The position numbers and the translations under genes are program-made. A stretch of DNA of 64,000 bases from Psammoneis japonica (lineage: Eukaryota), in NCBI GenBank assembly GCA_008632985.1, contig QPGO01000053.1:248001-312000 (forward strand). Direction: 5' to 3'. Within the stretch, counting starts at the first letter, position 1. Each line of letters opens with the position of its first letter. This document shows, piece by piece, positions 5,943 to 42,700 of the stretch. Under the pieces are notes generated by a model. The model was not told where the DNA came from and ran no database searches. It worked only from the letters and a program-made list of their open reading frames with translations.

Positions 5943-7469
5943 TCAATTTTTAGTCTTGTTCTTTTTATTCTTTGGTGTCTGAGCTCTAGCGTCTCGCATC
6001 TCTTTCGCGGCTACTGCGGCGGCGTTGTTCTTTGGAGAAGGCCTTTTTGTCTTTTTAGACATCGCTTTGGCTTTCGCAACAGCAGCCGCATCCGTCACGG
6101 CTGCTGCGTCTCCCTGGTCCTTTGTGTTGGCTGTTGTGTTTGCAGCTGGTGGCTTCGTATTGTTTTTCTTCCTACGATTTCTCCTCTTTCTCGGGTTAGC
6201 ACCGGTACCCGTCGTTTTTCCTTTCGGGGGCCCATTCGTCGAGTCGGTGTTGTCAGGATTCCCAGGCTCAGCAGCATCAGTTTGTTTGCCAGCATCCGGC
6301 TGTTTCTCTGTCTGGTCCTTTTTAACCTCCGGAGCGACTTGAGGATTGCTTTTAGCAACTGCATCAGTTTCTTTGTTTGACTCGACGTCCACCCAAGACT
6401 CGTTTAGTGCCTTTTTTGTCTGTTTTCCCTTGCCCTTGTTAGCTTTCGCAACGGCTCCCGAATCCGTCGCTGGAGCTGCACCTTCTTCAGCCTTTGCTAC
6501 AGCTGGTCCCTTCGCTGGCTTCTTTTTTCGGTTTCGCCTCTTCCTCGGAGATGCGCGTGGACCACCACCTGCAGCCTTGGCTTCCGTGCCAACAACCTTT
6601 TCACTATTGGTATCTCCAACTTTATCCCCCTTTGCAGTCTCGGATACGCCTTTTTTCTTTCCATCGACCTTCGTCCCAGTCTCAGAAGCTTTTTGATTCA
6701 CAACGCCTGCAGCCTTGGCTTCTGTGCCAACAACCTTTTCTCTATTGGTATCTTCAACTTTATCCCCCTTTGAAGCCTCGGATACGCCTTTTTTCTTTCC
6801 ATCGACCTTCGTCCCAGTCTCAGAAGCTTTTTGATTCACAACCTTTTTGGTCTCGGCGACAACATTGGAACTCTTTGTTGCGCCTTCATCCGTTCCTTTG
6901 GATTTGTCAACGTCCACCCACGAATCGCTCAAAACGACAAACTCTTTGTTTGGTTCAGAAGTTTTCGGCTCCTCGTCTACAACATCATGAGTTGGAATAG
7001 ACCGAGTTTTTGACGATGCCGCATCCTCCACTACCAGTTTCTGCTCTTTAGGTTTTTCTGGCTCCCCGCCTACAACACTAGGAGCTGGAATAGATATAGC
7101 TTCCGTTGAACGTTCATTCTCCACAGCTGGCGTCTGCTCTGTGGTCGCGGGCTGTGCTTTGACTGTATCTTCCGGAATTGGAATAGACCGAGTTTCCGAT
7201 GAAGCTTCATTCTCGATTACTGGCGTCTTCTCTTTGGATGCTTTTGGTTCCTCGTCTGCAACATCAGGAATCGAAATCGATCGAGCTTTCGGTGGCTTTT
7301 CCTCTACGGTGTCAGGCTTTCCTTCGATTGCAGCACGATCTTGTGGTTCACCCTGCGTTTCTTCGGTCGCTGCAGGATCTTTGTCCCTTGATGCTTTCGA
7401 CAACAACGCAACGGCAAGGGCGGCTGCTATTGTCGTTGCGATTGCTACACCCACAATTTTCTGTGACAT
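5943..7469 (-). CDS. Low-complexity Lys/Glu/Ala-rich protein with N-terminal membrane anchor and internal repeats
   Basis: Long ORF; likely start MSQKIVGVAIATTIAAALAVALLS (hydrophobic). Duplicated VVNQKASETGTKVDGKKKGVSE block, two PRKRRNRxKK motifs and two SWVDV motifs. Confidence 0.75.
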   Translation of the reverse strand: MSQKIVGVAIATTIAAALAVALLSKASRDKDPAATEETQGEPQDRAAIEGKPDTVEEKPPKARSISIPDVADEEPKASKEKTPVIENEASSETRSIPIPEDTVKAQPATTEQTPAVENERSTEAISIPAPSVVGGEPEKPKEQKLVVEDAASSKTRSIPTHDVVDEEPKTSEPNKEFVVLSDSWVDVDKSKGTDEGATKSSNVVAETKKVVNQKASETGTKVDGKKKGVSEASKGDKVEDTNREKVVGTEAKAAGVVNQKASETGTKVDGKKKGVSETAKGDKVGDTNSEKVVGTEAKAAGGGPRASPRKRRNRKKKPAKGPAVAKAEEGAAPATDSGAVAKANKGKGKQTKKALNESWVDVESNKETDAVAKSNPQVAPEVKKDQTEKQPDAGKQTDAAEPGNPDNTDSTNGPPKGKTTGTGANPRKRRNRRKKNNTKPPAANTTANTKDQGDAAAVTDAAAVAKAKAMSKKTKRPSPKNNAAAVAAKEMRDARAQTPKNKKNKTKN

Positions 7470-10275: not shown

Positions 10276-13016
10276 GGGGCACTCTGTGTGAAGTGGGGCA
10301 ATGAACGCATTTTGTGTTTGATGTCCACCCAAATGAAGAAAAGTTTGCAGCTCAATCACACCTCCCAACAACACTTGAAGCTTTAAAAAAATTGCCTGCC
10401 CCACACAACTCTGCAGACACATTGAAAAACTCTTGCTTCGTGTGAAACAATGATGTCAAAAGTTCCTGTTGAATGCATGACTGCAAATGACACAAAGCGC
10501 CACTGAAGTCACACAGAAATGTGCTCACACAACACATGACACATGACGAGACAGCATCAATGTCACAGTCCAGCAGTGCAAGGCCCCCTGCCTGGAGCTG
10601 GAGCATCAGATGAAGACTTCTGTGTGTGGCACCTTTTTGCTGCTGAAGAGTGTCTCTCTCTTGCATTGTTCACTGAGTTTTGCTGGAGAGTGTTTGCTCA
10701 CATTTTGATGTGATCACTCCTGGCTGACTGGCAAGAATGTTTGCATTCTCTGGAGCTTGAAGCATGCAGCCACAGCTGTGGATGGTGTTGGCTGCCACAC
10801 AGTCTCACTCCAACAATGTCCAGGAGCATTTTCATTGTTCTTGCCATGTGGTGCCCACTTTCATTGCCAACAAATTGACGGCACTGCTTGCAGCAATGCA
10901 TTTGTTCTCATTGCTGCTGAGAACATGGCATTGTCAAACTTTGCACACCAAGAAGGCAACCATGTCAGAGCACAGCGTGCAACAATGTGCTGCAACACTG
11001 AAGCTTGTTTTCAATTTTTGCAAAAACAATGGCACCATTTTTTTTTGTTTCAAAGTGTCATTGAAATGTGCTGCTCACATTTCAGCCATGCTTGCTGTGA
11101 TGCCATGTGTGCCTCTCATTTTTTGGATGGTCAAGCACACAGCCAACATTGACTTTGGCACGCAAGTGAAGTGCAGCTTTGCCAATTTCATTGCACAACT
11201 GCATGTGAGACAGAACTTGTTCATGCCTGCACTCAGCAACAATGTTCAAACAACCCTTTCTCCCCCACGTGCACACCAAGGGACAAGAAGCCATGTGTGT
11301 TTCCACACAAGCTGTCTCCAGAAGCTGCAAAGAAACCATGCATGTTTCCACTCATGCTCCACCCACCCTGCCACTTTGCTCTCTTCACCAACTCTCTTTT
11401 TGCAGAATTGTGTGCCACTTGATGCTGCATGTTCATTTTTTACATTTTTGCTGCTGCTGCTGCTGCTTGTGCGCAAAACTCCACACAACTTGCAGCAGCA
11501 CACTCCCCCCTCCCTCTCCCTTGTCAAGAGAGCATGCCACATGCACAGTGATGGCAACCTCTGTCCAGTGCAAGCAAGCAACTGTTGCAGGGTCCTCTGC
11601 CCACCATCTTTGTGGCACATGAATTTTCTTCTTGTCGTGCAATGCCCAGCCAACAAACAACAGCATCAACAACCAACCAGTGTCAGCAAACAATTTGCTT
11701 CTCTTCTTTTTTGCTGTGCCAGCAGTTTGACAACACAATGTGAGTGTGCAAGGTTTGCATTGTCAGCTGCTGGCAAAGGACACACTGCACTCTCTCACTG
11801 GTTTTTTGTCAGAGAATGTGTGTGGCTGAAAGTGTGGTGTTGCCTCTTTGTGGCCTGGCACACCTCATTGACCAGTGGTGTTTTGAGAGCCAGAACATTG
11901 GTGGTGCATGACTGCTTTTTGATGAGTGGCATCAATGGCACAGTGTGGCCAAGGAGTGGTGCCTTGAAAACAAGAGGATCCCCAAACCAAAGTGCCTCTG
12001 TCTTGAAAACAACCAAGGGCAATGCTTGCAAAGCTTTTTTCTCTGCAATCTCTTGCTGCTCTGGCATTTTTTAGTTTGGCAATGTGAGCAATGGACCGTG
12101 CTGTTGTGGGTCAATGACCACACCAACAGGAAAAGTGGTTTTGGGCACGCCACTCTCCAACAACATCCAAGACCTGCACACGCATGGCAAGCTCTGTTGC
12201 ACGACACACTGTCCTCCCATTTCAACATCAAGACAAAGCAAAACCTCCAAAGAAGAAGGCCTGGACTCCACAATGCTCAGCCAAAAAGGGGAGGCACAGC
12301 TGCACTGAAACACATGGGACCAAGTGCCTGGCACACTCAACCTCTCAAGAGAGAGGTCAAAGACTTTGTGATGGGCAGCCAAAACAAGAGCCATTTCTGG
12401 GTTCAAAATTTCTCTCACAAAACCTGACCTTTCAAGTGGGGTGGTGGCAGAAAAAGGTGCAGCACATGGTGGCTGATGTGAAAAAAACAGCAGGTGCCAA
12501 GCTGTTTTGACAAGCAAGATTGGGCAGGAACACAGGAAGACTGGGCAAAAACACTGTGGCTGGTTTGTCATTTTGGCTAAAAAAGGAAAACTGTTTTCAT
12601 GCTGACAACTGCAAAGAATGTGATGAGTGGCAAGCGTGTGTGCTGCCTCATCATTTAAAACAATTTTTGGGTGAGTTGCAGCTCACACTGCAGCCCTGTC
12701 TGTGGAGATGGAACCACAAAACAAGCAGAAATGAAAACAGCCCCAAAAGAAGAGCAAGCCAGGAGAAATCATGATCAGCGGAGACCACTGTCAGATGGAA
12801 GTGAGCTGGCAAGGTGCTGGCCCCTCCAAGAGCATCGAAGCCTGGAAAAAGAAGACAGCAAAACACAGAAGCAACAAGACAGCTGAGCTGGCAGCAGCAC
12901 AAGTGACAAACCTCTGAGCCTGGTGATTGTGAGGGAGAGGAGAGGGGGGCAAAAAAGCCACACAGCATGATGTGTCTGTTTCAGCTGCAAAACAAGGAGG
13001 GGGGCAGCAAAACAAA
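10276..13016. mobile_element. Degenerate repeat/TE block, TpA- and CpG-depleted (host of the young Copia; continues after 20123)
   Basis: Almost no TA or CG dinucleotides and a strong TG/CA excess. Family not recognisable. Confidence 0.6.
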
Positions 13017-13292
13017 TGACAGGATTTGAACAGGATTTGGATGCGCGCGAAGCATCGCGCGCTGTTTAGTTTACCGCGCACAGTTTTGTGTGCTTTAGTT
13101 CCGCGCGTTCACGCGCGATGTAGTTTGCTTTCGAGCCACAAGGCTCACAAGAACAATGACAGTAGCCCGATTGTGCCGACTTGCACGTCTTTCGGCTCCT
13201 GCAACGGTCTCTGAGCGGAGACTCATCTGCCATTTAGACAGCAGTAAGGAGTTATTGTTTGAATTCTTGCCATTTGCCTTCAGTTTCTATCA
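13017..13292 (+). repeat. 5' LTR of the young Copia
   Basis: Matches 19847-20122 with 7 substitutions. Confidence 0.97.
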
Positions 13293-14231
13293 GATTAACA
13301 GTCTTGCTCATTGTCAACCCATTGAGCAACCGCCATCGTCGTCGTTGATTTACCAACGACGCCATTTCAATTCTACGTGGACCTCCGTATATATTCTACA
13401 TACATCGGCAAGTCTACGCGCATTCAATACCAGGGCATCGGCAGGAAGTTAACGTCACCGTCAAGTCTCCTTACCGCTGGATATCTGGATTGATTATACT
13501 ACCTTTGATCGCTGAAGACATACATTCAACGGTCATATCCAAGTCTATCCTTGATCCTCATCCCTTGATATACCTGTTCATCGGTTAACGGTCAAGAACC
13601 CTACATATTCAAGGATCTTCGTCGCTGAAGACATGTGTATATATACATGTCTTCACGGCCAAGAACCTGTACCCACTCTTCGGACTGCGGTTTTGCTGCC
13701 ACTCTACAAGCACACCGAGTCCATTGTACCTGATCTACCCCGGACTACTGGTGCTCTACAGTTCTACTAGGTCCACGAGGACGACTGTGAGAGCAAGCAG
13801 CCGTGATTGCAGCCTGCGTTGGGGCGAGGGTGCTTTCCCGCGTTTGTTCGTTCGTCCACAGCGCCCAACGCCTACGTCAACTGGCCAGCCTGATCGGGAA
13901 ATCCAACCGACATAAAATAAGAACGGTTCGGGGGTCTTGTCCACCTCTAGTCAGCTTGCCTGCAGGGGTTTACAACCCGCCACTCCGCTCGCAAGCAACC
14001 CAAAGCGCCACTGGCTGCGGGTTCGGACGTGCCGGCACAACTCTACGGTCCGGATGGGAAGTTTAGCACTTGACAACGAACGGGATGACAAAGCCCGGCG
14101 ACTTCTGATTTTAAGATAGTTCAAGATTTCAAGTCAAGTCCACTTCAAGTCAAGTCCATTCTCACCCAAGTTTCGAGTCTACCTTCGCTTCCCAACCAGA
14201 GTTGATTGTCCTGACACCACTTTTGTCTGCC

Positions 14232-17200
14232 ATGGTTCTCACTCGTCAGCAACAAACCGATGGTTTTGAGCACGTTGTTGGAGCCGTGCTTGCCCAAGGT
14301 GCTGGGAGTCCTCTTCGTTTGGCTTTGGCCCAAGACGGCACGGACTCGCATCAGGAACTGTTCACGTTCACACCGTCCCAAATCGACTCGCTTGAGTGCG
14401 ACAACGGCACTGATGTAATCCCTTTGCCCCGTGGTTACAAGAACATGTTAGCAGCACTGGTCAGCCTGTACATTGTCAAAGCACACAAAGGTCTTGACGT
14501 TGCCAACGACTCCTCTTTGTTCACGCATGACGAGTTCCTTGCCTGCCGCCTCAGCCCGGACTGCATGTCCTCTCTGTCCATCGGCAGCTCACCCCTTGCA
14601 CCTCCACATGTCACCAACCCGACCAAGGCATGCGACCCGGTGCGAGACTTCAAGCAAGGCATCAAGCGTGATCCCACCGCTTTCACAGCTCTCAAATCCG
14701 ACAAGCAGTGGCACACTTGGCACACCTCACTTGTGGCACAAGCCCGTGCCCAAGACGTCAAGTGCATTCTAGACTCGTCGTACAAACCGACCAGCCCCGA
14801 AGACAAACTGCTCTTTGCTGAACAGCAAAAGTGCATGTTCGCCGTCTTTGAATGCATCCTTCTCACCGACAAGGGCAAGGCTCTCATTCGCGAAAATGTG
14901 GGGTCCTCTGACGCACAGACCGTCTGCCGCTCCTTGTCTGAGTGCGCGCTTGCCTCCACCCATGCATCTGTCGAGTCCTCCACCCTGCTCACGCACCTCA
15001 CCACCGCACGTCTTGGTGATGGCACTTGGAAAGGTCCGACCCACGGGTTCATCCTTCATTGGCAAGATCAGTTGCGCAAGTGCGAGGCACTCATCCCCGC
15101 CAGCGACCACTTCTCTGAAGGACAGAAGCGCGTCATGCTCGAGAATGCCGTGCACCCTGTCGAGGAACTCCGTGCTGTCAAGAACCAAGCTGATCAGCAT
15201 CGACGCAGAGTGGCAAGAGCCTCACATCGATCAATGCTGTGGCTTGCTCCTCTCCGCGGCAGCTCAGTACGACAGCACGTTTCAACCCAAGACGACACCT
15301 CGAGCTCCCCGACGCGCCACACACGCACACGACGTCTGCTCCGAGGAACCGTCCGACGATGTGTTCTACGACATTGACAGCGACGTTGACGTCCTTCAAG
15401 CCAATGCTGCCTGCGCCCGTGGTCCCAGCCTCACCGGTGTCCAATGGAGACGTCTCCCTCCCGACCACCAACGGCTCTGGGATTCGTTGCCCGATTCCTC
15501 CAAGGCGATCATCCTTGAGCACTCTCGTCCGCCTCCCCGCAACCCGCGAGCCAGTGACTGCCATGAGTCTGTTACGGCCAACCTTCACGACCAACACCTT
15601 GGGAGTGACGGTGATGTCAACTTGTCCAACACGACTCCTGCTGACTGTGGTGACTCCGCTGCACATGTGGACGCCATTTCGGATGATCCCATCCTGGCGC
15701 ACCTCACCAAGCGCAAGCCACTGCCACCCGGTGATCTGCAACGTCTGTTGTCTCCTAACCAAGCCCCCAATGCCAGTCGACCTTGGCCATCCGCCGCTTC
15801 CTCTACCCCGCCAGCTTCTGCAGATGACATGGAACTTAACGGCCGCACTTGCCGCCGCGTTGACAACCACAATGTCATTTGCTCTGCCTCTGCTCATCGC
15901 TCCACACGCACTGGCGCTCTAGTCGATCGTGGGGCCAACGGCGGCATTGCTGGTGACGACGTCCGCGTCATCGCACGCACCTCTCGCCAAGTCGACGTTC
16001 AGGGCATTGACGATCATCAATTGGTGGACATCCCCATTGTCACCGCTGGTGCCGTCATTGAGACCCAGCGTGGTCCCGTCATCGCCATCCTCCATCAGCA
16101 CGCATGCACGGGAAAGGGCAAGACCATCCATTCCTGCGGCCAGCTCGAATGGTGCAAACAGGATGTCAACGATCGCTCTGTCAAGGTGCCCAACGGCTTG
16201 CATCGCATTGCCACTCCTGATGGCTATGTCATCCCCATTGACATCAAGGCTGGCCTGCCTTGTGTTGCCATGCGACCTTACACTGACGCCGAATGGGACA
16301 CCCTGCCCCACGTCATCCTCACCGGTGATGACACATGGGACCCTTCCGTCCTCGATCACTCTGTCACTGACAATGACCAGTGGTACGACGCGATCTCTGA
16401 CCTGCAGGACGATCCCACTGCCAACCCATTTGACGAATGCGGCAACTGCCGTCACCGTGTCGTTGTCAACGAGACCATCTTGTCCGCTTCCTTGTCTGCC
16501 GATCACGCGTCCGCCCTCGATGATCACCTCATTCCGAACGACGACGTGTTCTACGAGTGTCATCTGCATGCGATTGACCCCAAGGGCGATGACGTTCCAC
16601 CTCCGGAGCGCACTGTACAGCCCAAGGACCCCCCCTTCGAGTCTCTTCGGCCTTGCTTTGGCTTCCTGCCTGCCGATGCGGTCCGTCGTACTTTTGACTG
16701 CACCACGCAGTGCGCCCGCATGCCCGCCGGCACACACCTTCGCAAGGCCTTCAAATCACCCAACCCCGCCCTTAATGTGCACCGTCGCAACGAGCCTGTC
16801 GCCACTGACACCGTTTGTGCCGACACCCCGGCCGTCGACTCTGGTTGCACCAGCGCCCAACTGTTTGTTGGCACCGAGTCTACCGTCACTGACGTCTACG
16901 GCACTGAGACGGACAAAGAGTTTGTCAACACACTCGAGGATCAGATCCGTGAACGTGGTGCCCCATCCAAACTCATTAGCGACCGTGCTCAAGTTGAGAT
17001 CAGCAACAAAGTGCTCGGGATCCTACGCGCCCTCTTCATCTCCAGCTGGCAAAGTGAGCCTCACCAGCAACACCAAAACTTTGCCGAGCGTCGACACCAG
17101 ACTGTGAAGCGCATGGCGAACACTGTCATGGACCGTTTTGGTTCGCCCGCCCACACATGGCTGCTGGCGCTCATGTGCGTGTGCTTCACACTCAACCATG

Positions 17201-19899
17201 CAGCGTCCCCACGTCTCCACTGGCGCACGCCCCTCGAGACTCTCACTGGATCCACCCCGGACATCAGCCCATTGCTTCGCTTTCACTGGTGGGAACCAGT
17301 GCACTTCCACCTCGATGACTCCAATTGGCCGTCCGAATCTCGTGAGTTGCGTGGACGCTTCGTTGGCATTGCTGAGCACGTCGGCCACCAGATGACCTTC
17401 AAGATTCTATCTGACGAGACTCAGAAGATCCTCTGCCGGTCCAACGTTCGCTCCGCCACCCCCGATCCTGCCGTTCGAAACCTGCGTCTTGATCCTCCTG
17501 ATGGGGAGCCACCTGAACCCATCATCAAATCTCGCCATGACGACAACCCCGTCGATTCTCCTGATGGGGAGATCAGGACACCCAAGATGCCAGTTTTCGA
17601 TCCGCAAGACATCATTGGACGTACCTTCCTCATGCAGCCACAAGAGGACGGACAACGCCACAGAGCTCGCATCGTCAAGGCCGTCGAAGACCACGAATGG
17701 AAAGTGAACGGCAATCCCGAGCTCACTAAGTTCGTCTGCTCTGTCAACAATGACGAATACGAGGAAGTCCTTGCCTGCAATGACATCATGAATCACATTG
17801 AGCAAGAAGACGAAGACACCACTGTTTGGAAATTTCGACGCATCGTGTCACACGAAGGCCCTCTGAAGCCTCACGACCCAACCTGGAAAGGCTCAAGCTA
17901 CAACATCATGCTTGAATGGGAAAGTGGGGAGATCACGTCCGAGCCTCTTGCCATCATCGCCAAGGACGACCCCGTCACCTGTGCCATCTATGCACGAGAG
18001 AACGGACTCCTCGACACGGATGGATGGAAGCGGTTCCGCACCATCGCGAGGCGCCAAAAGAAGCCATTTCGCATGGCCAACCAAGCCAAGCTTCGCTCCT
18101 TCCGCACTGCACCTCGCTACAAGCACGGATGCGAAGTTCCCCGGAACTACAAACACGCCATGTCACTGGACGAACGCAACGGCAACCGCAAGTGGGGAGA
18201 CGCAACTAATCTCGAGATGGACCAACTCGACGAATACGAAGTCTTCCATGACTGCGGGCCCTTCAAGTCTTCCACTCCTCCTGCGGGACACAAGAAGATC
18301 CGAGTGCACCTGGTGTACGACGTGAAACACGACGGTCGCCACAAGGCACGACTCGTAGCCGACGGGCACCTCACGGACGTACCTGTCGACAGTGTCTGCT
18401 CCGGAGTAGTCTCCCTTCGTGGCCTTCGGCTGATGATTTTCCTGGCCGAACTCAACGAGCTGGAGACATGGGCCACCGACATTGGCAATGCCCACCTTGA
18501 AGCCACCACCAAGGAGAAGCTTTACATTGTAGCTGGACCCGAATTTGGCAAACTCGAAGGACACATCCTTGTCATCCACAAGGCACTGTATGGACTCCGC
18601 AGCTCCGGTCTCCGCTGGCACGAGCGCTTCGCCGACTGCCTGCGAGCTGAAGGCTTCTTCCCCTGCCGCGCCGAACCCGACATTTGGATGCGCAGGAACG
18701 GCGACCACTGTGAATGCATTGCCGTTTATGTGGATGACCTCGCCATTGCCATGAAGGACCCTCAATCTTTCGTCGACACTCTCACGGAAAAGTGCAAGTT
18801 CAAGCTCAAGGGTGCGGGACCCATTGAGTTCCATCTGGGTTGCGACTTTTCCCGGGACCCCGACGGAACCTTGTGCCTGTCTCCGCGCAAGTACATCGAG
18901 CGCATGGTCGACAGCTGCGCCCGACTGTTTGGGGAGAAACCTGCCACCAACGCCCTGTCACCTCTAGAGAAGGGTGACCACCCCGAACTGGACACTTCCG
19001 AACTGCTGGGACCCGATGGCATTCACAAGTTCCAGTCTCTTGTTGGTTCACTCCAATGGGCAGTGTCCCTTGGTCGAATTGACATTACCACGGCCGTCAT
19101 GTCACTCTCTAGCTTCCGAGCTGCGCCCCGTCAAGGCCACTTGGATCGTGCCAAACGCGTCTGTGGGTGCCTCTCCAAGATGCGACACGGTGCTCTCCGC
19201 GTTCGCACGGAAGAGCCCGACCATTCGGATCTCCCTGCTCCGGCCTACGAATGGATGCATTCCGTGTACGGTGAAGCAGAAGAGATGATCCCGAAGGACG
19301 CTCCACCGCCCCTTGGCAAGTTCGTCACTGCCACCCACTACGTCGATGCAAACTTGTGCCATTGCATGCTCACCGGGCGCTCTGTCATGGGAATGCTCCA
19401 CTTCCTCAACAAATTCCCGGCTGATTGGTTCTCCAAGAAACAAGCCACCGTGGAGACTGCAACCTGCGGATCTGAATTTGTTGCCGCAAGGAATTGTGTT
19501 GAGCAGATTATCGACCTGCGCATCACCCTGCGCTGCCTTGGCGTCCCGATCCGTAATGTCAGTTACATGTTCGGTGACAACAAGTCGGTTGTAGACAGTG
19601 CCACCATCCCGCACTCCAAGTTACACAAGCGACACACCGCACTGTCGTTCCACCGTGTGCGTGAGGCAATTGCCTCTGGTTGCCTTGAGTTCCACTTCAT
19701 CGAAGGCTCCCGCAACCCTGCTGACATTCTCAGCAAGCATTGGGGTTACTCCCAAATCTGGGACCTTCTCCGACCCCTCATGTTCTGGAACTTCATTCCA
19801 TCCGAAGTCGAATCTGTTTCTGTGGCTCCTCAAGCAAACTGGGGAGTGACAGGATTTGAACAGGATTTGGATGCGCGCGAAGCATCGCGCGCTGTTTAG
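14232..19899 (+). pseudogene. Copia gag-pol polyprotein, frameshifted near 15200-15230 and hypermutated (Tyr->Cys/His)
   Basis: Gag DFKQGIKRDP; protease LVDRGANGG; integrase VATDTV..LISDRA..QNFAERR; RT KARLVADG, KALYGL, YVDD; RNase H HYVDA, GSEF, FGDN, NPADILSK. Confidence 0.93.
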
Positions 19900-20122
19900 T
19901 TTACCGCGCACAGTTTTGTGTGCTTTAGTTCCGCACGTTCACGCGCGATGTAGTTTGCTTTCGAGCCACAAGGCTCACAAGAATAACAACAGTAGCCCGA
20001 TTGTACCGACTTGCACGTCTTTCGGCTCCTGCAACGGTCTCTGAGCGGAGACTCATCTGCCATTTAGACAGCAGCAAGGAGTTGTTGTTTGAATTCTTGC
20101 CATTTGCCTTCAGTTTCTATCA
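19847..20122 (+). repeat. 3' LTR of the young Copia
   Basis: Follows the PPT; paired with 13017-13292. Confidence 0.97.
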
Positions 20123-20127
20123 ACAAA

Positions 20128-20151
20128 GAAGAAGAAGAAGAAGAAGAAGAA
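20128..20151 (+). repeat. (GAA)n microsatellite next to the insertion site
   Basis: About 8 GAA units directly after the TSD. Confidence 0.9.
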
Positions 20152-20949
20152 TGAGAGACCAGCTTCTGGCGGCAGTCTTGACAAAGTGAATTTTGCAGCA
20201 GCATGACAACACTGTGTGCCAGTGCAGCCGGCAAGCAGCACCAAGAGCTTGAGAGCACAGCTGCATTTGTTGTTGCAAGTTGCAGGCAGCTCCTTTTCAC
20301 GACACTCCTCAGCAGACATCAGCTGTAAAACATGCATGAAAACAGTGTCACACTGAGTTGGAAATGATTTTGAAAGCAACAAAACATCAAAATTCTAGCC
20401 AAAAAGTGCTGTTGTCCAAGCTTGCAGTGGCTTCTGAGGCAGGTGTTGGAAAAAGGTGGCTTTTGGTGCATCGGAGCAACAAGTTTTGAAGGGGCAAAAG
20501 AGGGGTGGGCAGCAGGAATCCTCACTGCAAAAAGAGCCAGTTTTCTAAAATGGTTGACTTGGGGTCATGTTTTGCACATCTGGCAAGATGGTGCAGCTTG
20601 AAAAGCTGCTCTTGGAGCACACAACAACATGCTGGGGGGCCATTCTTCTTCCAAGCAAAGACGTGATGTGTTTTGTGCAGGGGAAGAGCTGGTGTGGGCA
20701 CAAGTGAAAACAAACAGAAACTGACAGTGAGACAAAGGAGCACATGTGCAAAATGGAAAGAATGACTCTACACTGCATTGTGCTGCTGCTGTGCAAAAGG
20801 AACATCACACAGTTTTGTGGAACAATCAGAGGGTCCTCCATGGTGTTGGAAAGGGTTGATCTGGAGAAACATGTGGCGGGATTGTCGCGCGGAGTGCGCT
20901 TGGAGATGGAGAGAAAAAGGGCAGGCCAAAAGTGCAGACAGATGGTTGA

Positions 20950-21600
20950 GAGGAGGAGTTGGTGACAGTGGGATGGTGAAGAAGAAGAGCTTGGCATGTG
21001 GAAAGATGGTTGGAGAGAGCAAAGCCGAAGTTGAGGCTGAGGATTTGAGAGGCCCAGTCAGAGTTGAGGAGTTGCAGTGTGATGGGAGGAGCCAAAGCGG
21101 TCCAGTGAAAGTTGTTTCCAGGCCGCATTGGAGCAGGTGAGGAGGTCAGAAGGTGTGAGCAGTGAGTTGGTGAAAGTGGACAAGGGTGCTTGGCAGTTGG
21201 AAAGGGAGGGCGGGCTTGTCCAGGGCGGTTTTGGAGGAAGGGGGGTGGGATGGTGGAGGAGGATGTGGTGGAGATGCCGAAGAAAAAGAGACGTGGAAAT
21301 GACATCCGATTCTGCCAAGGCAGTCAAATGTAAAAGGAAGGAGAAAGAGCCCAGCTTGATTGACAGCGTCAATGATGTCGGGGCCATGGGTGGGTGGTGT
21401 GGAGCGTCCGAGAAGCTTGTCCCCCCATGTGCACACTGCTGAGGTGAGCCTTGTTTTTATGGGTTTTCAGGGACAGGCAAACCAGGTGCAGGAGGCGGCG
21501 GAGCTGGCGGTACAGTGACATCGATGACCAAGAATTGGTGGGTGGATGGGGCGTTTGGTGGTGTAGAACCAGGGATGAGTTGAACGGTGGGCTGGTCAGG
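20950..21600 (-). mobile_element. 3' fragment of a non-LTR retrotransposon with a restriction-like endonuclease (CRE/Ambal-like), degenerate
   Basis: Minus-strand fragments FLVIDVTVPP...KLLGRS..DIIDAVNQAGLFLLPFTFDCLGRIG...WASQILSLNFGFALSNHL resemble the PD-(D/E)xK RLE C-terminus. Frameshifted. Confidence 0.5.
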
Positions 21601-22035: not shown

Positions 22036-25000
22036 ATGAAAATGGTTTGTAAGGGAGTTCCTCTCTTTCTTACCTTTGTTCTTTGCGAGGCAACAGGTAT
22101 GCATCGTTAGGCTGAGAATGTTCCTGACGCCATCGAGTTATTGCGACGAGACATGAACGACTAACGGATTTACATCTATCCTGGATGTTTCTCAGATTAT
22201 AAGACTGAGTTGGGACTGAATGACCCGATCTCTTCACAAGTAAGCAACGTGCAGAAGCATTTCGGAATCACATTGGCCATTCTCTCTTCTTGATCCTCTT
22301 TGTGACTGACTCTCTCTCTGCCTTCAACTTGCTCTCAAAGGGTGTGTTAAACGCAGCAATCGACGACGCTGAAGTGAAGTCCCAGACAAGAGTTCTGGCC
22401 CCTGTAAGTTGTTTCAAATAATTCATGAATGATAGTTCGACCCATTGCAATATCTAACAACCACAGCGCAAATGCGTTTCAGCGGGGAGCGTGTTGTCAA
22501 GCTTATGCAAATCCACCGATTTGCAGAGTTATTCAAGAAGGCAATTGCGAGTATCGAGGCGGCTACTACGTTGGAGATGGAACAAGATGCCGAGCCAACA
22601 ACTGCCCAGAGGCGTTTGGGGGCTGGTGCGACCCCGATCCAGACGGACAGTGCTTCCTCACGAGGAAGCCATACTGTGACTCGAGGAACGGTGCGTCCGT
22701 GTGGAGAAATAAAAAAAAGGTACAATTCCGTTCCAGTATCAATCTCTTGCCTCACACGCATCTTCTTTTTCTCATTTTTGAATTGCAGGCAACTTTGCTG
22801 GTGTGAGTACCACTTGTGACGCTTGTGGCAATCCATCAACCCCTAGTCCAACTATCAACCCCAATGCCCGTGGGGCATGTTGCTTCGAAGATGAGGGTTC
22901 CTGTCGCATATACAGGAAGAGTGTTTGTGATGCTGAACGCGGTAGCTTTAAGGGAGAGGAAACCTTCTGTATCAAGAGGTTGTGCCCTGCCGCATTCGGC
23001 GCCTGCTGCTTGCCTGGTTCACCGTGTGCTGTGTTGAGGAGAAAGATCTGTGACGACAGAGGCGGTATTTTCATAGGCTCTAAAACCCAATGCGTAAGTG
23101 ATTCATTTGTCGACGAAGATATCTTTCAACGATCTCATCCATCATGTAATCGTACTCTTCTCACCCCGTTTGCGCTAGTTTTCTAATACGTGTGCCCGCG
23201 GTGCGTGTTGTCGTCTAGAGGCCGGAACCTGCAAGGTAGTCAAGCCAAAGTGGTGTACAGGCGACTTCAAAGGATTTGTACGTTGCAATTGTTATGCGGC
23301 ATCTTTCTTGATGCTAGTGTGACTTGGACTTTTTCATTTCAAATTCTGCCGTCTGTATCGATACAATTCCCACAGGGCACAACGTGTGATTCAGAGACCT
23401 GTCCGCTGCTAGGTGCTTGCTGCAGGACTGTGGACGGAAAGAAAAAGTGCACGAGAATCAAGAAAAAGTGGTGCGTCTTAAATGGAGGTGAGTACTGATA
23501 ATGTACAGGCAATGAATCTAGACTTTATGATCTGCGACATGAAGTGTGCTTACAATTTGCGTCTCCGTCTGTTGGACGATTTTTCAGGCGACTACAAGGG
23601 CTTTGGCACCACGTGCGAGCCTGGAATTTGCGACGAGGATACGCCGAGCCCCACGCCGAGTCCAACACCAGTTGCAACTGGAGCATGCTGCTTGAAGTTC
23701 AGGTAGGCCATATCCCATGATTGTAAATCGCCGTTTCTGTGACGCATTGTGCGCTAACTTGCACCGAACTTCATGCAATTTATGCACTTTCCATAAGAAA
23801 ACAATGCTTAGTTGTCACGGAGGAATCGTGCGAAACATTGAAGGGAATTTACAAGGGCGATGACAAGGTAAGAGTTGCATGCCAAGGCATAGTGAGGGTG
23901 CCTGAGTGCCCTTAATGCTAAACACCCGTCGTTCTTGCGCTTTGCTTTTTCAGACCTGCGTCCCCGGCCGCTGTACCGTAAGGGGTGCATGCTGCCTGTC
24001 TTCTGGGATCTGTCTCCTAAATCAGAAAAGAAACAGGTGCCGCAAACAGCTCGATGGCACATTCCAGGGCTTCGGAACAACTTGTGAAGATGACCCATGC
24101 CATTCGGGTCCGACTTCTACTCCCACCACTCTGTCTCCAACGCCATCTCCGACTCCGGACATTAAAGGAGCTTGTTGCCTACCGTTTGGCGATAGCAGAT
24201 GCGAATTACTTTCCACCACAAACTGTACTCTTGAGGGGGGAGCATACCGTGGAGATGATACGATATGCACACAGGCAGGTTGTCCGCTCCGAGGGGCCTG
24301 TTGCCTTGTCAACGGAAATTGTGTACGGACGCTTATGGAGAACTGCGGCGGGGATTTTCAAGGTCGCGGAAGCGAATGTGAAGACGAGAATGGTTTACCC
24401 ATCTGCTTGACGCCGTCTCCTACTCCCTCCCCGACTCCCGTCATTGAAGATGGAGCTTGCTGCCTACCGTTTGGAGATAGGAAATGCGAACGTCTCTCTG
24501 CAGAAAATTGTGCGTCAGAGGGGGGAGCATACCGAGGAGATGACACAACGTGTAACGAAGTGTTTTGTCCAAGGAAAGGAGCCTGCTGCTTTGACGACGG
24601 AACATGCGAAAGAAAGACGCTCGGGAACTGCCCTGATACAATTGGAGTCTTTCTGGGTCGCGGCACCGAATGTAGTGACGACAACGATCTACCAATTTGC
24701 CCGACACCCTCTCCAACTCCGAGCCCAACTGAGAAACCAAAGGGAGCTTGTTGCACCCCTCGAGGAGATTGCTTCGACGATGTTATAGAAGTGTTCTGCG
24801 ACAGTGTGAACGGCTTTATATTCTTTGGTGTTGGCACAAACTGCAGTGATCCTGACGTTCAGTGCCCCACCCCAGAGTCAACACACCCTCCGACTCCTGA
24901 AATCAAAGAGGGAGCATGTTGTTTGCCGTTCGGAAACAACACATGCGAGATTCTTTCCGAGGAGGATTGTACTTCAGAGGCGGGAACCTATCTTGGAGAT

Positions 25001-25899
25001 GATGAGCAGTGCGATGCTCAATGCCCAGATCAAGGAGCCTGTTGTCTTGACAATGGAGCTTGTGAAAAGACGACTTTGGAGAACTGCGACAATAGGGTCT
25101 TTCGGGGTCGCGGAAGCGAATGCATAGACGTAACCGGCAGGCCCGTTTGCCCAACGCCCACTCCAACGGAGTCTCCGACCCCGATCCCAACCGAGAAACC
25201 ACAGGGAGCTTGCTGTACGCCCCGAGGAGAATGCTTTGACGACGTTTTAGAAACGATCTGCGGTGGCGTGATTGGATTTACGTTCTTTGGAGATGGAACA
25301 AGCTGCAATGATCCAGATGTTCAGTGTCCCACCCCAGAGATAACAATCCCTCCACCTCCTGACATCGTAGAGAGAGCTTGTTGCTTGCCTTTCGGGGACA
25401 AAAAATGCGAAGTTCTCTCTGAGCTGCTCTGCGCTTCTGAAGGGGAGAATACAAAGAAGATGACACGACGTGTGCTACTGTAAGTTGTCCAAGGAACGGG
25501 GCCTGCTGTTTTAACGATGGAACTTGTGACCGTAAGACTTTGGGTAACTGCAGGGATGAAAATGGAGTCTTTCAGGGTCGCGGTACAAGTTGCAATGATC
25601 CGGGCTTTTCTTGTCCTATCACGACTCCAACACTCCCTCCTGGAGTGTTGGGCCGTTGCTGTCTTCCCAGCGGTGGATGTGCTGAAATAGATGCTTCATT
25701 CTGTGATGCTCACAATGGCGTATACCAAGGCGATGGTGAAACCTGTGGTGGTATGACAGATCGTTGCCGTGACACAGGAAGCTGCTGCGTGCGCGAAGAT
25801 CCGTATTGCCTTGTTGTTAACATTGCGACTTGCCAGGAGAACGGTGGTGTCTTTGGCAATGTCGCATGTTTATACCGCCATTGTTCTGGTGCGGGTTAG
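22036..25899 (+). CDS. Secreted multi-exon Cys-rich repeat protein (GACC-xn-C-xn-GGxYxGDxTxC repeats with TPSPT linkers)
   Basis: Signal-peptide exon MKMVCKGVPLFLTFVLCEAT; many GT-AG introns; roughly 20 GACC-type repeats. A 1-nt frameshift in a G run near 25445 separates the last repeats. Confidence 0.8.
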
Positions 25900-37329: not shown

Positions 37330-39579
37330 TCAGACCAACGCGCCCAGTCCGCCCAAGAAGAAGAAGAAGAACACAAGAGCATAGTACAGAGGCTTAGCCC
37401 CAAAAGCGAAACAGCCACTGTCCTGTTCGCCGGGACCTTCATTTGTTTCCCCGCAAACACGAGGGTTGGTCGCTCCGACGCAACGATAACAGCGGAACAT
37501 GTTGTCTGGGTCAACCTCCTTTTTAATGTCTTCCAGCTCAGCCAAAAGTTTTGTCCCCCACACGGTCTCTTCCACACTGACGCAGTCTTCTTCCTTTTCT
37601 TCAATTGTATAATTAGCAGGACAAGGTGTCGTAAAGTCTGCTTTCAACGGTCCAAACCAGATATTGTCAATGTGGTTGTACTCGCTGCCGCCATAAAAGT
37701 CTCCTTCATCCAGACCCGGCGGATGAAAGAGCTTCCACGCTTTCCAGGCAGCTTCTTCGGTGGCGGCACCCACCAAATCGGTGCAGAGAAAGCCTTGAAA
37801 TCCCGCCCGACGTTCTGCGTCTGGCACTGCTGTCATTGTGTCGCTTGAAATGGCCGCATTTCCACCAATGACATGAGCTGGAATGATCGCCGACAAGAGA
37901 CTGAGCGCATCAGGTGATTTGAGCAAGAAGAAATCGGTCGGCACAAGGATTGCCCAACAATTTTCCGTAATGTAGTTGGTGGCCGGCGGATGCTCGTCAA
38001 TGATGCGCCCCAAGGGAACCCGACTCCCGTCGTGTGACGATCCAGCCAAAGCGTACGAACCAACATTCGTAACGGAGAAGATTCCTCGACCAAGAGTTGC
38101 CAGCTCGGCACCGAGAGACTGAAAGGCGGATGAATTCGACAAGTAGGCTTGCCATGCAGCCACGACAGGCTCGGGATTGCGGCAAAAGAGCTGACTATTG
38201 ACACCTCGCAACGCCCAGGAAATGTCAAATGCCAAGGAAGGTGAGCCACAGCTGTTGCTTGTTTCGACATCGAGTCCAATAACTTCGGGATCGTAGAGCA
38301 AATTGATGAAAAATATAGACAAAACGGGTGAGACCGTCTCGATGCAGCCAGGCGTTTGTGCGCATGCTCCTAGAAAGGCGGGGCCAGCTGCTAAATCGGG
38401 AAAGACTCGATAGAGCGGTTTGTAGGGGTGGAGCTGATAATACGCCGAGGTTACAATTCCATACGTCCCTCCGCCTCCACCACGGACGGCCTTCCAGAGT
38501 TTGTCAAAGGGGATGTCCATGGGACAATCCTTCCAGTCCCATTCCAACTCGTCCTCGGTCACATTCCAGTTGCAAAAGCCTTCTACTTTGGTTGTCAATG
38601 GATACAAGGACGAATTTGTGGCGTCTCGTTCCCAATCCGTCGGTCCAAATTTCACGTGCATGCCATTTGCCAGCACCATTTGCAATTCCATGACTTGATC
38701 CACTCCGAACCCATACATTCTTTCGTCGCCAATGGAAAGCCCGCCGCCCTGCATCCATCCACCAATGGAGGAAACCGAACCAGCGCCGCCTCCCACAATA
38801 TCGTACTTGTCTGCGTCGTCAGTTTGATCCTCATTCCATGCCAAGACGGCACGGTACACATAGTCCCAAACTTCGCCTCCACCGACCCGTACTACGGCTG
38901 TGTTGCCATTGGCGGTGGCTCGACGACATGCTTGACTGGCGGGATGGGCTGTTTCGTTACTTATACTGGAACACTGCACAATACCAGTGGACGTCATATT
39001 ACTTGTAGTAGCAGTAGTAGTGGAAGAATTGGCATATCCTTGAAGGTAGCGCAAATTCAATTGCAACGAATCTTTCATGGTGCTGGCGCCGTGATGGGAA
39101 TGGCCACCATTCTTGATGGAAATGGTCCAGCAATTCTCCTTGGCGATCTCTACCAAATCCACAACGTCCTTGGCATTTTCAGGAAATGCAATATGAGCTG
39201 GCAAGTTCAATGGGGGCAGGTCCGCTGAGGTCTCCAAAAAGTTGCTGGATGACGCGACTTGACTCGCATCTGTACTGTTCAGAACCGCAATTCCTTTCGG
39301 CGGCAAAACACAGCGTTCAAAAGCACAGGCCAGGAAGTCCGCACAGAGACCGGCTGGTTGGTCAATCAAGAAATAGTTACTGGACGGGATGAATTGCGTC
39401 TCGGCAAAGTTCGCCTCTTGAAAGGGCGGCACACATTGGTTGAGCCAATCATATGGATCCACCACTTCAAACAACGAGGCGGCGGCTGCTGTAGATGATG
39501 CAATAAAGGCAAAGACACAGCAAATCACAAGCTGAAAGGAAGACTTGTTCAACATCATGTACGGAAGGCCAATGAGCAC
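37330..39579 (-). CDS. Secreted FAD-linked oxidoreductase (FAD_binding_4/berberine-bridge-like) with C-terminal anchor
   Basis: Signal peptide, ISIKNGGHS, SVSSIGGWMQGGG, WKAVRGGGGGTYGIVT, WG..LEDIKKEVDPDNMF and a hydrophobic tail. Confidence 0.88.
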   Translation of the reverse strand: MLIGLPYMMLNKSSFQLVICCVFAFIASSTAAAASLFEVVDPYDWLNQCVPPFQEANFAETQFIPSSNYFLIDQPAGLCADFLACAFERCVLPPKGIAVLNSTDASQVASSSNFLETSADLPPLNLPAHIAFPENAKDVVDLVEIAKENCWTISIKNGGHSHHGASTMKDSLQLNLRYLQGYANSSTTTATTSNMTSTGIVQCSSISNETAHPASQACRRATANGNTAVVRVGGGEVWDYVYRAVLAWNEDQTDDADKYDIVGGGAGSVSSIGGWMQGGGLSIGDERMYGFGVDQVMELQMVLANGMHVKFGPTDWERDATNSSLYPLTTKVEGFCNWNVTEDELEWDWKDCPMDIPFDKLWKAVRGGGGGTYGIVTSAYYQLHPYKPLYRVFPDLAAGPAFLGACAQTPGCIETVSPVLSIFFINLLYDPEVIGLDVETSNSCGSPSLAFDISWALRGVNSQLFCRNPEPVVAAWQAYLSNSSAFQSLGAELATLGRGIFSVTNVGSYALAGSSHDGSRVPLGRIIDEHPPATNYITENCWAILVPTDFFLLKSPDALSLLSAIIPAHVIGGNAAISSDTMTAVPDAERRAGFQGFLCTDLVGAATEEAAWKAWKLFHPPGLDEGDFYGGSEYNHIDNIWFGPLKADFTTPCPANYTIEEKEEDCVSVEETVWGTKLLAELEDIKKEVDPDNMFRCYRCVGATNPRVCGETNEGPGEQDSGCFAFGAKPLYYALVFFFFFLGGLGALV

Positions 39580-39789
39580 ATACCAGTACGAGTAGGTCTA
39601 GAAAACCACATCGGCATGCAATCTCAATCGGCATCATCGGCGGGCGGGCTGGAGGTGGTAGGGACGGACGGAAGTACAAAAATTGCGTAGAAAACCCTGT
39701 ACTGTACAGTACGTACAGACAGACCGCCACTCCGATTCTACCGTATTCTCGCGACATGGCAAAGAATTTGTTGCGCAGCAAGTCCCATG

Positions 39790-42700
39790 AGTTTTGCCAG
39801 CTGCATCAAAAGTGAGAAAAACAGAAAATGGTGAAATGCTTCAGCCAGATGACAAGGAGTTGACCAGCTGCTCTGCACCTGTGACTGACTTGGTGCCGCG
39901 CTGCAGAGGTGCCACACCCAGAGGAAAAAGCCAGGAGGAGGGCAGGGCAGCAGCGCTCAGTTTGTGTCGTGCTGTTGTCTCTGCTGCCATCACCAGTGTC
40001 AAGTGGTTGCTTCTGCTGATGCATGTGTTTTGTCTGAACACCATGAAAAACTTGGCTCCATCTCTGTGGCAAATGTTTGCAGGGGGGGGGGGCAAAAAAT
40101 GTGCACCAGGTTGCATTTTTTCAGTGGCGGTGTGCAGAAGACAAAGAGCCACAGGTGCTGCTGTGATGCATGTTTGAAGAGTGGGCTGCAAGAAGACTTT
40201 GGACTCGTCACATCACCTCCCAGAAGTCAATGGTGCAAGAAACATGCTGTTTCTTCCAGTCACTGTGAGAGGCTGGAAAAGGCTTTTTAATCACAGCACA
40301 GCACAAATCTGCTTTCTTTGCAAATTTGACCCATGCAGGAATGGGGCCCAAGTGCTTGAGCACAGAGCTCTGGTGTTGCACAAAATTGTGAGACTGTTTT
40401 GTGCAGAGCACATGTGCACATGATGGCAAGACATGCAGAGCCTGAGTTCTTGCTCAGAGCCAATCACACTTGGTGCTGCTGCACAGATCATCCCATGTGC
40501 AGTCTCTTCTCATGCAATGCGCGACACTTGCGAAATGGCCAGTCATGCCACAACTTGATTGCATGGAACTCCAGCAGCCTGTCACAGGTCTTGCACTGGG
40601 AGCTGCATTTTCCAACATGTGCTTCTGTGGGTCAGCATTGTGCTGCAGACAGCCCGCAGATGCAGGAAAGCAGCATCATTTGCAACTGCAGCATGGATGC
40701 CTGCTGCACTTGCTTGCCCCCATGACAAGGTTGGCCAAGTTGCAGACCCATTGCTGTGACCCATGCAGGAACAGGGTCTGAAAGCTTTAGCAGAGATTTC
40801 TGGTGTTGTGCAAAATCATGAGATGATTTTACACTGAGCACATGCACCCACGACAGCAAGACATGTGGAGCCTCCTGAGCCCTTGTGACGCGTTCCAGAC
40901 GCAGGTGGGAATCCGTGTGACATTGGGTCCGTAGAATTCTGCATGCGAGCTCCACAGTAAAATTGTCAGGTGATGAGAACATCAATGATCGCCAACAGAA
41001 AATGAGGCAATTTTGCGAACGGACAAACTCATCAAAACCCCTCATGATGCCCTCCTGACTGCCCCACACACTGTTGTTTGCTTTTGTGGAACACAAGGCT
41101 GCACCAGCGCTGGAACTGCAGCCTCAAATGGGCACCCAGCTTGCATCTCATGTGTTTCAAGAGACACCCACAATTTTGGTTGCCTGGCTTTTCAACTCTG
41201 TGTGTCATTCAATCATGGGCACTGCATTGCACCCACTTGCACTCCACCCAGATGAACATGCAACCATGATGTTGAGTGTGCTTGTTGTTGTTGGAGCATC
41301 TGGCTTGAGGGGCACTGCGTGTGATGTGGAAATAAAGTCATGTCTTTTGAGTCCCAATGTGGTGAGTTGATGACTGTTCTTTGGAGAGGATCTTCTCCAT
41401 CATCGATTGCAATCTCACCAACTTTTTTCATGCTTGCTCCATGGAGTGAATCATCCTTTTCATCAGGAGCAAAAAGTGGCATCTGTCAACACACAATGAT
41501 CTGTTTTTGGTGTGCACACAACATTTGACATTGAGGAAAACCACAGCCAACACAGCAACAGAGGGGGCAAGTGCGCTGAGCAGCACAGGAAGCCTGGCGG
41601 GATTCCCTTTTGGTGACATTGACTTGCCGGCTCAACACTCACTCCAAAGAGCCATTTGCACTTGTTGAGTGCATGCCAACTCATCAGAAGATCACAAGAT
41701 CATCAACACCTGTGCTGTGAGTGGCAGAGCACACAGAAGGCAACAAGCAAAAGACCATGACCAGCATGAGGGCCATGGTGGAAGAGGCAACAAGAAGCAT
41801 GCCAAGAACAAGAAGTCCTTCTCCAACATGAGATGAAGTTTCACCCTTCATCCCTGAATGACAACACGCACAATGCAACACACAAAGTCATCAAGAGGAA
41901 GATCTGCAGACACATGCAGAAGGAATTTGAACAGAGCAAACAAATGACAAGGTCCCTGGAAAACATGAAGAAGTGCCTTGACTTTGAGGCCAAGAAGCCT
42001 GTGCCGAGGCTGCAAAAAGCAGCTGCACCCATGGAGGGGTCAACCCCCACACAATTCTGACATGACAAGCAGTTGGAATGTGAGTGCCATGCCAAATGCA
42101 AGGAGAGCTGCCATGCAAACTGAAGCTGTTTGATGAGAATGAATCAAAGGCATTCACTGTGGTTGTGGATGACCACTGTGTGAACCATGTGAGGAACAGG
42201 GTCCCAGGCAACCCAAGCCATGACAGCATTGGGGATGATCCAATCAAGTTGTTGAGACTTGTCCATTCCCTCACATTCAACTCAATCAGAGGTTGATGTT
42301 TGTTCCGTGTGCATGCATTGACAAAGTCCCTGAAGAACACACCATGTGCAAACAAGAGATGGTGTCAAAGACCACTCTTTTGTGGACAGCAATGTGAGCA
42401 TCAACACCACCAGATCAACAAGATCAACCTGTTCAACCTGGAGGAGGGGAGCTGTGTGGCATGGGTTGCAACTGGTCAATGAATGACCAGAGACAAGCAT
42501 GAGCCAGACCAACATGAGCATTGAGACTGATGAAATCATTTTCAACAATGGCTCTGCCCTTGGTGTGGCAGCAAGCTGGAGGTTGGTGTGCAATGCAGAA
42601 CGGGCAAAGATTGACTTGCACATGAACACAAGAGTGGACACCCTGGACAAGGATTGTGCCATGCCAGGATTGGGTGACATGAACTTGGGATCAAAACATG

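Follow-up and report, generated by a model that had tools for sequence, protein, structure and literature searches.

Conserved tyrosine codons of a Copia retrotransposon from Psammoneis japonica have been changed to cysteine and histidine codons at TpA dinucleotides

A complete, 7.1-kb Ty1/Copia long terminal repeat (LTR) retrotransposon lies within a stretch of 64,000 bases from Psammoneis japonica (GenBank assembly GCA_008632985.1, contig QPGO01000053.1, positions 248,001 to 312,000; hereafter the window, whose own numbering is used throughout). Its polyprotein raises the question of why cysteine (Cys) or histidine (His) so often stands where related proteins have tyrosine (Tyr), and by which process, and when, these codons were altered. 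An earlier, sequence-only reading had proposed A to G changes at TpA on both strands and quoted 16 peptide strings as instances; all 16 are present in the translation of 14773-19896, with the codons TGC/TGT and CAC/CAT as claimed. The explanation that we consider probable is a DNA-level, host-directed process of TpA-specific transitions, which struck one copy of an abundant Copia family.

The polyprotein was aligned with 84 homologues (alignment A3), the gag frame (14232-15221) and the pol frame being entered as separate rows with all counts made in the correct frames, and columns with at least 80% agreement were taken as conserved (743 columns). The window copy differs at 76 of these, and 24 of the 76 differences fall at Tyr columns. 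The 38 conserved Tyr columns comprise 14 with Tyr kept, 14 with Cys, seven with His, two with phenylalanine (Phe) and one with tryptophan, while only 52 of the 705 other conserved columns are changed (Fisher p 1.5e-16); raising the threshold to 90% conservation gives 20 changed among 29 Tyr columns and 19 among the 534 others. Among the 84 homologues, 3223 Tyr cells contain nine Cys and 30 His, and across 79 metagenome loci 2267 Tyr cells contain five Cys and 28 His, one Tyr column in the latter set having belonged to the pattern used to fish the loci, which biases that column towards Tyr. Residue composition in the window copy is 1.38% Tyr, 2.92% Cys and 4.51% His, against homologue means of 3.81, 0.92 and 3.51. 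At the 18 Cys or His positions flagged by the sequence-only reading as former Tyr, Tyr is indeed the commonest residue at 15 (in 34 to 84 of the 84 homologues); the remaining three are dominated by other residues, namely 16105 (leucine 38, Tyr 21), 18130 (Phe 57, Tyr 24) and 19357 (methionine 46, Tyr 24).

A Cys/His cluster was found in a single one of the 84 homologues, P0109, which has seven Cys and four His at 39 conserved Tyr columns. This relative from a metagenome source is 62% identical to the window copy, shows a milder form of the same signature and, at 2.86%, contains less Tyr than any other of the 84 homologues. Six sites are changed in both P0109 and the window copy, where the outcome at the protein level is equal at four and different at two.

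The substitutions follow a dinucleotide rule and not one of codons. Where columns are conserved, an A in the second codon position has become G in 14 of 38 cases after T, in three of 58 after A, in none of 51 after C and in two of 88 after G, and T at codon position 1 has become C in seven of 38 cases before A and in none of 30 before either T or G. No change in the reverse direction was seen at conserved columns. The changes are thus tied to the TpA context and run from Tyr to Cys or His, as had been proposed, and both strands were struck, with sense-strand A to G accounting for the 14 Cys and sense-strand T to C for the seven His. TpA being self-complementary, 'A to G on both strands' leaves the same record as 'T to C on both strands', so that the double-strandedness of the earlier claim holds and its choice of the altered base does not follow. 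The peptide KLKGAG obeys the rule (threonine in 75 of 84 homologues; ACG to GCG after T), KKPFRM is only compatible with it (Phe 39, leucine 36 among homologues), and the dominance of leucine to serine or proline, isoleucine to methionine or threonine, and valine to alanine that had been expected did not materialize, the 76 changes including one leucine to serine, one valine to alanine and no isoleucine to methionine or threonine. No 5'-to-3' gradient of editing, as expected of single-stranded cDNA editing, was seen along the element.

No amino acid other than Tyr (TAY) has TpA in every one of its codons, and the visible outcome of TpA loss is therefore Tyr to Cys (TGY) or His (CAY). None of the changes that the rule permits within or between codons (TAY to TGY or CAY; NTA to NTG or NCA; NNT-ANN to NNC-ANN or NNT-GNN) ever yields a stop codon, and a frame that remains open after such a load is for this reason uninformative on selection.

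Depletion extends over the whole coding sequence, where the observed-to-expected ratio (o/e) of TpA is 0.22 and the GC content 0.575, both outside the range of 79 relatives (TpA o/e median 0.71, minimum 0.45; GC median 0.482), and about 128 of about 183 expected TpA have been lost from the coding region. By codon phase (1-2, 2-3 and 3-1), TpA o/e is 0.28, 0.24 and 0.17 in the window copy and 0.70, 0.76 and 0.80 in the relatives (pooled, 77 long matches). CpG in the coding sequence is unchanged relative to relatives, with an o/e of 0.95 in this young Copia copy. TpA in the Tyr phase is retained at 0.40, compared with 0.25 in the other phases (Fisher p 0.043), a weak hint of some selection. The base following a remaining TpA in the element is T at a frequency of 0.07, against 0.29 in relatives (56 sites), and in the TpA-poor blocks described below it is A at a frequency of 0.60 (45 sites); these counts, on 56 and 45 sites only, hint that TAY was struck more than TAR. 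A TAC-specific motif, as in the tRNA anticodon loop, was also considered and is not supported by the bases flanking the remaining TpA.

Two further features of composition were observed in the element: third codon positions in 14773-19896 are 44% C, compared with 28% in relatives, which exceeds what TpA loss alone explains, and GC skew is strongly negative (-0.10 to -0.19). Moreover, among 79 related metagenome loci (L001-L079) TpA o/e correlates with CpG o/e (Spearman 0.42, p 1e-4), and the TpA-poorest of them (L043, L006, L020, L016 and L018; 0.45-0.49) have a CpG o/e of 0.21-0.60 and are rich in TpG/CpA.

When the changes arose can be read in part from the LTRs. The 5' LTR (13017-13292, forward strand; 276 nt, starting with TG and ending with CA) and the 3' LTR (19847-20122, forward strand) form a direct repeat identical at 269 of 276 bases and are bounded directly on the outside by the same 5-bp target-site duplication, ACAAA (13012-13016 on the left and 20123-20127 on the right), the arrangement of an LTR retrotransposon. 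The two LTRs of one element are identical at integration. Here they differ at seven positions, without a single transversion, which make up six sites: CA/TA, a TG/CA doublet, TG/TA, TA/CA, TA/TG and CG/CA. Five of the six are of the TpA to TpG/CpA type, the sixth being CG/CA. Only 22 of 276 LTR bases lie within TpA, and the probability of finding at least four of the five single differences there is 1.9e-4. Counted as events per site-copy, there are six per 24 TpA, one per 42 CpG and none per 420 other bases. As a control, the pair of host bestrophin paralogues in the window shows 91 transversions among 179 differences, and two doublets. These differences point to action of the process on integrated DNA too, and it does reach the LTRs, which shed about a quarter of their TpA after insertion. 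Mutation at the TpA sites of the element is tens of times faster, at the least, than at ordinary sites and exceeds that at CpG about 10-fold, which accounts for a copy depleted of TpA that still has its CpG. For dating, the TpA-driven rate deprives the 2.5% divergence between the LTRs of any value as a clock; an age estimated from it would be badly inflated, with TpA- or CpG-related dinucleotides contributing all seven differences and ordinary sites not one.

What may be an advanced state of the same loss is seen elsewhere in the window. The element sits in an older block, the left half of which (10307-13016) has a TpA o/e of 0.03 (five sites), CpG 0.12, TpG 2.03 and CpA 1.80 (measured over 10307-13048) at a single-copy depth of about 67, while the right half (20171-21226) has TpA 0.06 and CpG 0.22. 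A 10-kb block at 39775-50024 shows TpA 0.04, CpG 0.10, TpG 2.03 and CpA 1.85, and a 3-kb block at 52471-55472, between two bestrophin paralogues, has hardly any TpA or CpG. The blocks add up to 17,050 of the 64,000 bases, with 45 TpA in total (TpA o/e 0.03-0.06, CpG 0.10-0.22); their edges are sharp, TpG and CpA within them are at about twice expectation, and by depth they are single-copy. The DNA between them, which carries host genes, has a TpA o/e of 0.45-0.8 and CpG near 1, so that TpA loss is confined to foreign or repeated DNA and the neighbouring host DNA is normal. Inside the 10-kb block, a direct repeat pair (41289-41637 and 47574-47919; 82% identical, 6.3 kb apart) possibly represents the LTRs of an old element. 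The pair differs at 56 of 344 positions, 24 of which form 12 doublets with TG in one copy and CA in the other, each of them one ancestral self-complementary dinucleotide resolved separately per copy.

Some observations on these blocks stand by themselves. At the right-hand edge of two blocks, TpA stays scarce slightly further out than CpG does (21226-21510 and 55472-55580). Between 10400 and 13041 the window differs from a single contig of public run X1 at only four of 2642 bases, all transitions (CG/TG, CA/CG and, twice, TG/TA), and variation within the left block thus falls at the same dinucleotides as the decay. No Pfam match was obtained for the long open reading frames (ORFs) of the blocks.

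The proposed process would make A:T to G:C transitions at TpA on either strand and so leave TpG or CpA; it would work on chromosomal DNA, be confined to foreign or repeated DNA and run far faster than ordinary mutation. With time, and with methyl-CpG decay added, insertions would end as TpA- and CpG-free blocks like those in the window. The simplest reading of the element itself is a two-phase history. In the first phase, loss in the coding part would have built up in a lineage that was still transposing, while the cis-acting LTR and leader were preserved by selection and better copies perhaps furnished the proteins; in the second, general TpA loss would have followed in the window copy after its insertion. 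We infer that much of the coding-region loss came from the source lineage and that a further quarter or so of the TpA was lost post-insertion. As for the chemistry, adenine deamination by an enzyme of the TadA/ADAT2 type is a reasonable guess by analogy, and a modified thymine that mispairs would leave the same footprint, since a self-complementary target does not separate deamination of A from modification of T and the flanking bases do not decide between them either. For the CpG loss in the old blocks, ordinary decay of methyl-CpG is a likelier source than the same enzyme.

Several observations weigh against this explanation, some of them from the family at large, for which the contigs of four public runs from one sample (X1-X4, possibly the assembly's own data, so that their agreement with the window is not fully independent) were compared with 10400-21500. 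Word depth is about 67 in the flank and sums to 55,000-200,000 in the element, from 15,035 contigs in X1; the Copia family is very abundant, although the depth sum is not a copy number. In X2-X4 only 21-25 G to A and 29-33 C to T places are seen relative to the window copy, fewer than the approximately 128 lost TpA, and the longest pieces from these runs differ from the window copy by only about 1.5-1.9%, so that the majority of losses seem to have been inherited and not to have arisen in place. Despite its Cys/His load, such an element seems to have multiplied all the same. In addition, the LTRs (TpA o/e 0.53) and the leader (0.80) of the window copy are undepleted and TpA falls off abruptly near the gag start codon, which a uniform DNA-level process does not predict and which needs an added assumption: selection on cis-acting sequence while transposing, recombination, or regional targeting. 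Finally, the TG/CA doublets of the old repeat pair may stem from ancestral CpG as well as from TpA.

These points feed the strongest alternative, in our view possible though doubtful, according to which an active lineage works with the TpA-poor, Cys/His-rich sequence as it stands, a state reached by gradual loss under the same pressure, filtered by selection and mostly inherited. The abundance and the few G to A or C to T places are what it expects, as are the sparing of LTR and leader and the slightly higher retention of TpA in the Tyr phase. The Tyr codon that the window copy keeps at 15268-15270 is TGC in 93% of the family depth, and many copies have the base that is missing at the frameshift of the window copy: an extra base behind 15227 occurs in about 45% of the X1 depth, as well as in contigs of X2-X4 (table of family contigs). 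Set against this, change has struck 20 of the 29 Tyr columns with at least 90% conservation and is not rarer there than where conservation is lower; the difference in retention is small, depth sums are not copy numbers, and activity is predicted only. Furthermore, an active lineage would still require TpA-directed mutation as the source of its changes, making it a rival on timing and consequence and not on mechanism. Abundance together with apparently shared TpA losses implies that the Cys/His load did not stop amplification, or that it was complemented in trans.

The family data also bear on two statements of the sequence-only reading. That the element was disabled by missense load rather than by stops is not established, since the window copy has a frameshift too and its TpA losses mostly seem shared with abundant copies. 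Active relatives with the same Cys and His residues, which that reading had named as evidence against itself, are approached by the same observation, most TpA losses seeming common to abundant family copies; individual states were given for 40 of 471 variable places, and the 21 Tyr sites are not directly among these. Across X1, 468 places vary at 10% or more, 403 of them by transitions. Adjacent pairs that are CA here and TG in other copies, or the reverse, occur at 13866/7, 14371/2, 15322/3, 15555/6 and 15684/5, and in the leader many copies keep TA where the window copy has TG or CA, and vice versa. A more speculative combination, which we entertain only tentatively, joins a TpA-directed defence of diatoms with a Copia family that multiplies by shedding coding TpA while keeping its indispensable tyrosines, its LTR and leader being protected by selection; the dinucleotides would then record an arms race between diatom defence and the family. 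A bolder form of this combination would have one deaminase act on both A and C in DNA and drive both TpA and CpG to TpG/CpA.

RNA editing before reverse transcription, in which an ADAR-like or ADAT-like enzyme would turn A into I and the edited transcript would be copied into DNA, is improbable. The depletion does follow the coding part of the transcript, Tyr to Cys (sense-strand A to G) exceeds Tyr to His by 14 to seven, and the preference of adenosine deaminases for a 5' U, discussed in the accessible text of 10.64898/2026.01.13.699255, fits TpA. Yet the seven Tyr to His changes and the CpA products are sense-strand T to C, which edited genomic RNA cannot produce, the LTRs differ at TpA sites despite being identical at integration, and old single-copy blocks are free of TpA. 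To our knowledge ADARs occur in animals only, and the host is diatom-like.

Even less probable is that selection against UpA or TpA in coding sequence, through codon usage, RNA stability or avoidance of nucleases, rather than mutation, shaped the element. The depleted stretch runs from the start codon to near the stop, and host coding regions are also low in TpA (0.45-0.65), as such selection would have it; it would not swap near-invariant Tyr residues, nor would it leave the between-codon phase as the most depleted, and the non-coding blocks, with 45 TpA in 17 kb, and the TpA differences between the LTRs are left unexplained. Least credible of all is an artefact of base calling or assembly, in which modified bases (a modified A in TpA, 5-methylcytosine in CpG) were read as G and T: both dinucleotides are self-complementary, as methylation targets usually are, and the effect is limited to repeats, but contigs of the four runs reproduce the element (again from one sample and maybe the assembly's own data), the X1 contig over 10400-13041 matches with its four differences in 2642 bases at even word depth, and neither the partial, copy-specific states nor the same signature in P0109, from another source, fit.

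The remaining parts of the element all lie on the forward strand. A 940-nt leader runs from the LTR to the gag start (13293-14231; TpA o/e 0.80 here, with TpA, TpG and CpA varying across family copies at variant sites 13363-13874), followed by a gag-like polyprotein part in its own frame (14232-15221; TpA o/e 0.15; blastx matches to P0001, P0002, P0005, P0006 and P0010), a frameshift zone (15222-15228) and the pol part down to the stop (15229-19899; TpA o/e 0.23), which seems to have protease, integrase, reverse transcriptase and RNase H in this order and holds 19 of the 21 Tyr-to-Cys/His codons. The frameshift near 15222-15228 separates the gag-like from the pol frame in the window copy, whereas homologues have a single unbroken gag-pol frame and many family copies have one base more; the first approximately 150 residues of the ORF from 14773 are consequently out of frame. 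The RVT_2 reverse-transcriptase domain lies at 18277-18915 (residues 1169-1381 of that ORF; PF07727, E 3.1e-28), and PF07727 is present in all homologues among the matches listed, as in a Copia-type reverse transcriptase. RVT_2 is the sole Pfam match in the element, none being obtained for integrase or protease at E 0.01, and the order of integrase before reverse transcriptase was read only from conserved motifs in the alignment consensus. With a threshold of E 0.001, more than 1000 proteins in the database match the ORF; over residues 640-1708 the best 120 show 60-72% identity, and most of them have 1800-1900 residues and an unbroken gag-pol frame. A short-fragment search of the protein database found no near-identical copy from the same genome, the best match being 80% identical. 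A GAA microsatellite (20127-20150) lies directly past the right target-site duplication, where contigs seem to break.

Host genes near the blocks encode a chaperonin subunit, a PhoX-like protein, a MYND-finger protein, an FAD oxidase, two bestrophins and a cGMP-dependent kinase. The named homologues of the FAD oxidase gene (37330-39597) are all from diatoms, at 34-37% identity, the best matches overall reaching 48-50%, and the nearest atlas cluster of the kinase gene (59121-61511) is mostly Bacillariophyta. The bestrophin genes (50930-52457 and 55812-57344) are 88% identical and in tandem, with the 3-kb TpA/CpG-free block in between; a reading of the two as LTRs was ruled out, both being bestrophin paralogues, and the second copy spans at least two frames, indicating an intron or a broken gene. 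Tandem repeats were also observed at 23906-25586 (units of about 460 bases, 68-73% identical, in a 525-residue ORF with no Pfam match) and at 6568-6842 (a 137-base unit present twice at 96% identity).

How does this pattern compare with known systems? Fungal repeat-induced point mutation (RIP) changes C to T, mostly CpA to TpA, and so makes TpA, raises A+T and creates stops. It resembles the present case in that dinucleotide-specific transitions ruin repeated DNA in place and leave sharply bounded, skewed blocks; in the window the arrow is opposite, with TpA destroyed, G+C raised and no stops, which is not RIP (for its indices see the accessible part of PMC7884421). APOBEC3 hypermutation in LTR retrotransposons and retroviruses (e.g. 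the accessible part of PMC4866542) is likewise of the deaminase type and recorded in integrated retroelement copies, but it is C to U on minus-strand cDNA, appears as G to A on one strand and precedes integration, unlike the A:T to G:C changes seen here, which struck both strands and, to judge from the LTRs, integrated DNA as well. ADAR hyper-editing of double-stranded RNA derived from repeats shares the A to G change and the 5' U preference; it differs in acting on RNA, in animals and with a looser neighbour preference, and it cannot give sense-strand T to C, differences within an LTR pair or the single-copy blocks. Both systems are one-stranded and pre-integration and for this reason fail on the LTRs and on strandedness: changes fixed by retrotransposition would lie on one strand and leave the LTRs identical, whereas 14 Cys, seven His and LTR differences were found. 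Methyl-CpG decay of silenced transposons turns CpG into TpG/CpA in old insertions, as in the blocks, and leaves TpA alone, in contrast to the young Copia copy with its CpG of 0.95 and TpA of 0.22.

The closest counterpart is the TpA hypermutation described for Bigelowiella natans, and the pattern in the window may reflect a host-directed defence of the same kind. According to the accessible text of the preprint (10.64898/2026.01.13.699255), 230 of 231 new mutations that mutation accumulation revealed in two integrated viral regions were A to G or T to C, all at TpA, at a rate about 1000 times background; the genome has 124 TpA-poor clusters rich in CpA and TpG, reverse-transcriptase and DDE domains are enriched in TpA-poor genes, and an ADAT2-like adenine deaminase (TadA/ADAT2-type) is the candidate enzyme, while that text makes no mention of CpG, LTR, Copia or tyrosine. 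Shared with the window, as far as that text goes, are A:T to G:C changes only, at TpA only, giving TpG/CpA, the restriction to foreign DNA with normal neighbours, and the TpA-poor, TpG- and CpA-rich footprint; the window element likewise shows A:T to G:C transitions confined to TpA in both orientations. The differences are that in B. natans new mutations were measured in single-copy insertions of giant viruses and virophages in a chlorarachniophyte, whereas in the present case the evidence consists of footprints, left in a high-copy LTR retrotransposon whose host is diatom-like, and that the blocks in the window have lost CpG as well and reach a TpA o/e of 0.03-0.06, compared with 0.45 in the giant-virus region of that preprint.

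A literature search with limited coverage of subscription journals found no report of TpA hypermutation in diatoms. In the part of the literature available to us, a single organism, treated in a single 2026 preprint, is so far the only one shown to hypermutate foreign DNA at TpA alone, and the enzyme is unproven. Were the footprint clear in a second algal lineage, one unrelated to the first and ecologically dominant, this would mean that the system is widespread; the target here is retrotransposons rather than viruses, with loss near completion over a quarter of a 64-kb stretch. If the proposal is true, the search for the enzyme and its guide would have many natural targets in such genomes, and the failure of homology-based annotation to pick up their old repeats would be explained. 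The pattern is best placed as a further host lineage and target class for the TpA hypermutation recently described in B. natans, run to completion and accompanied by loss of CpG.

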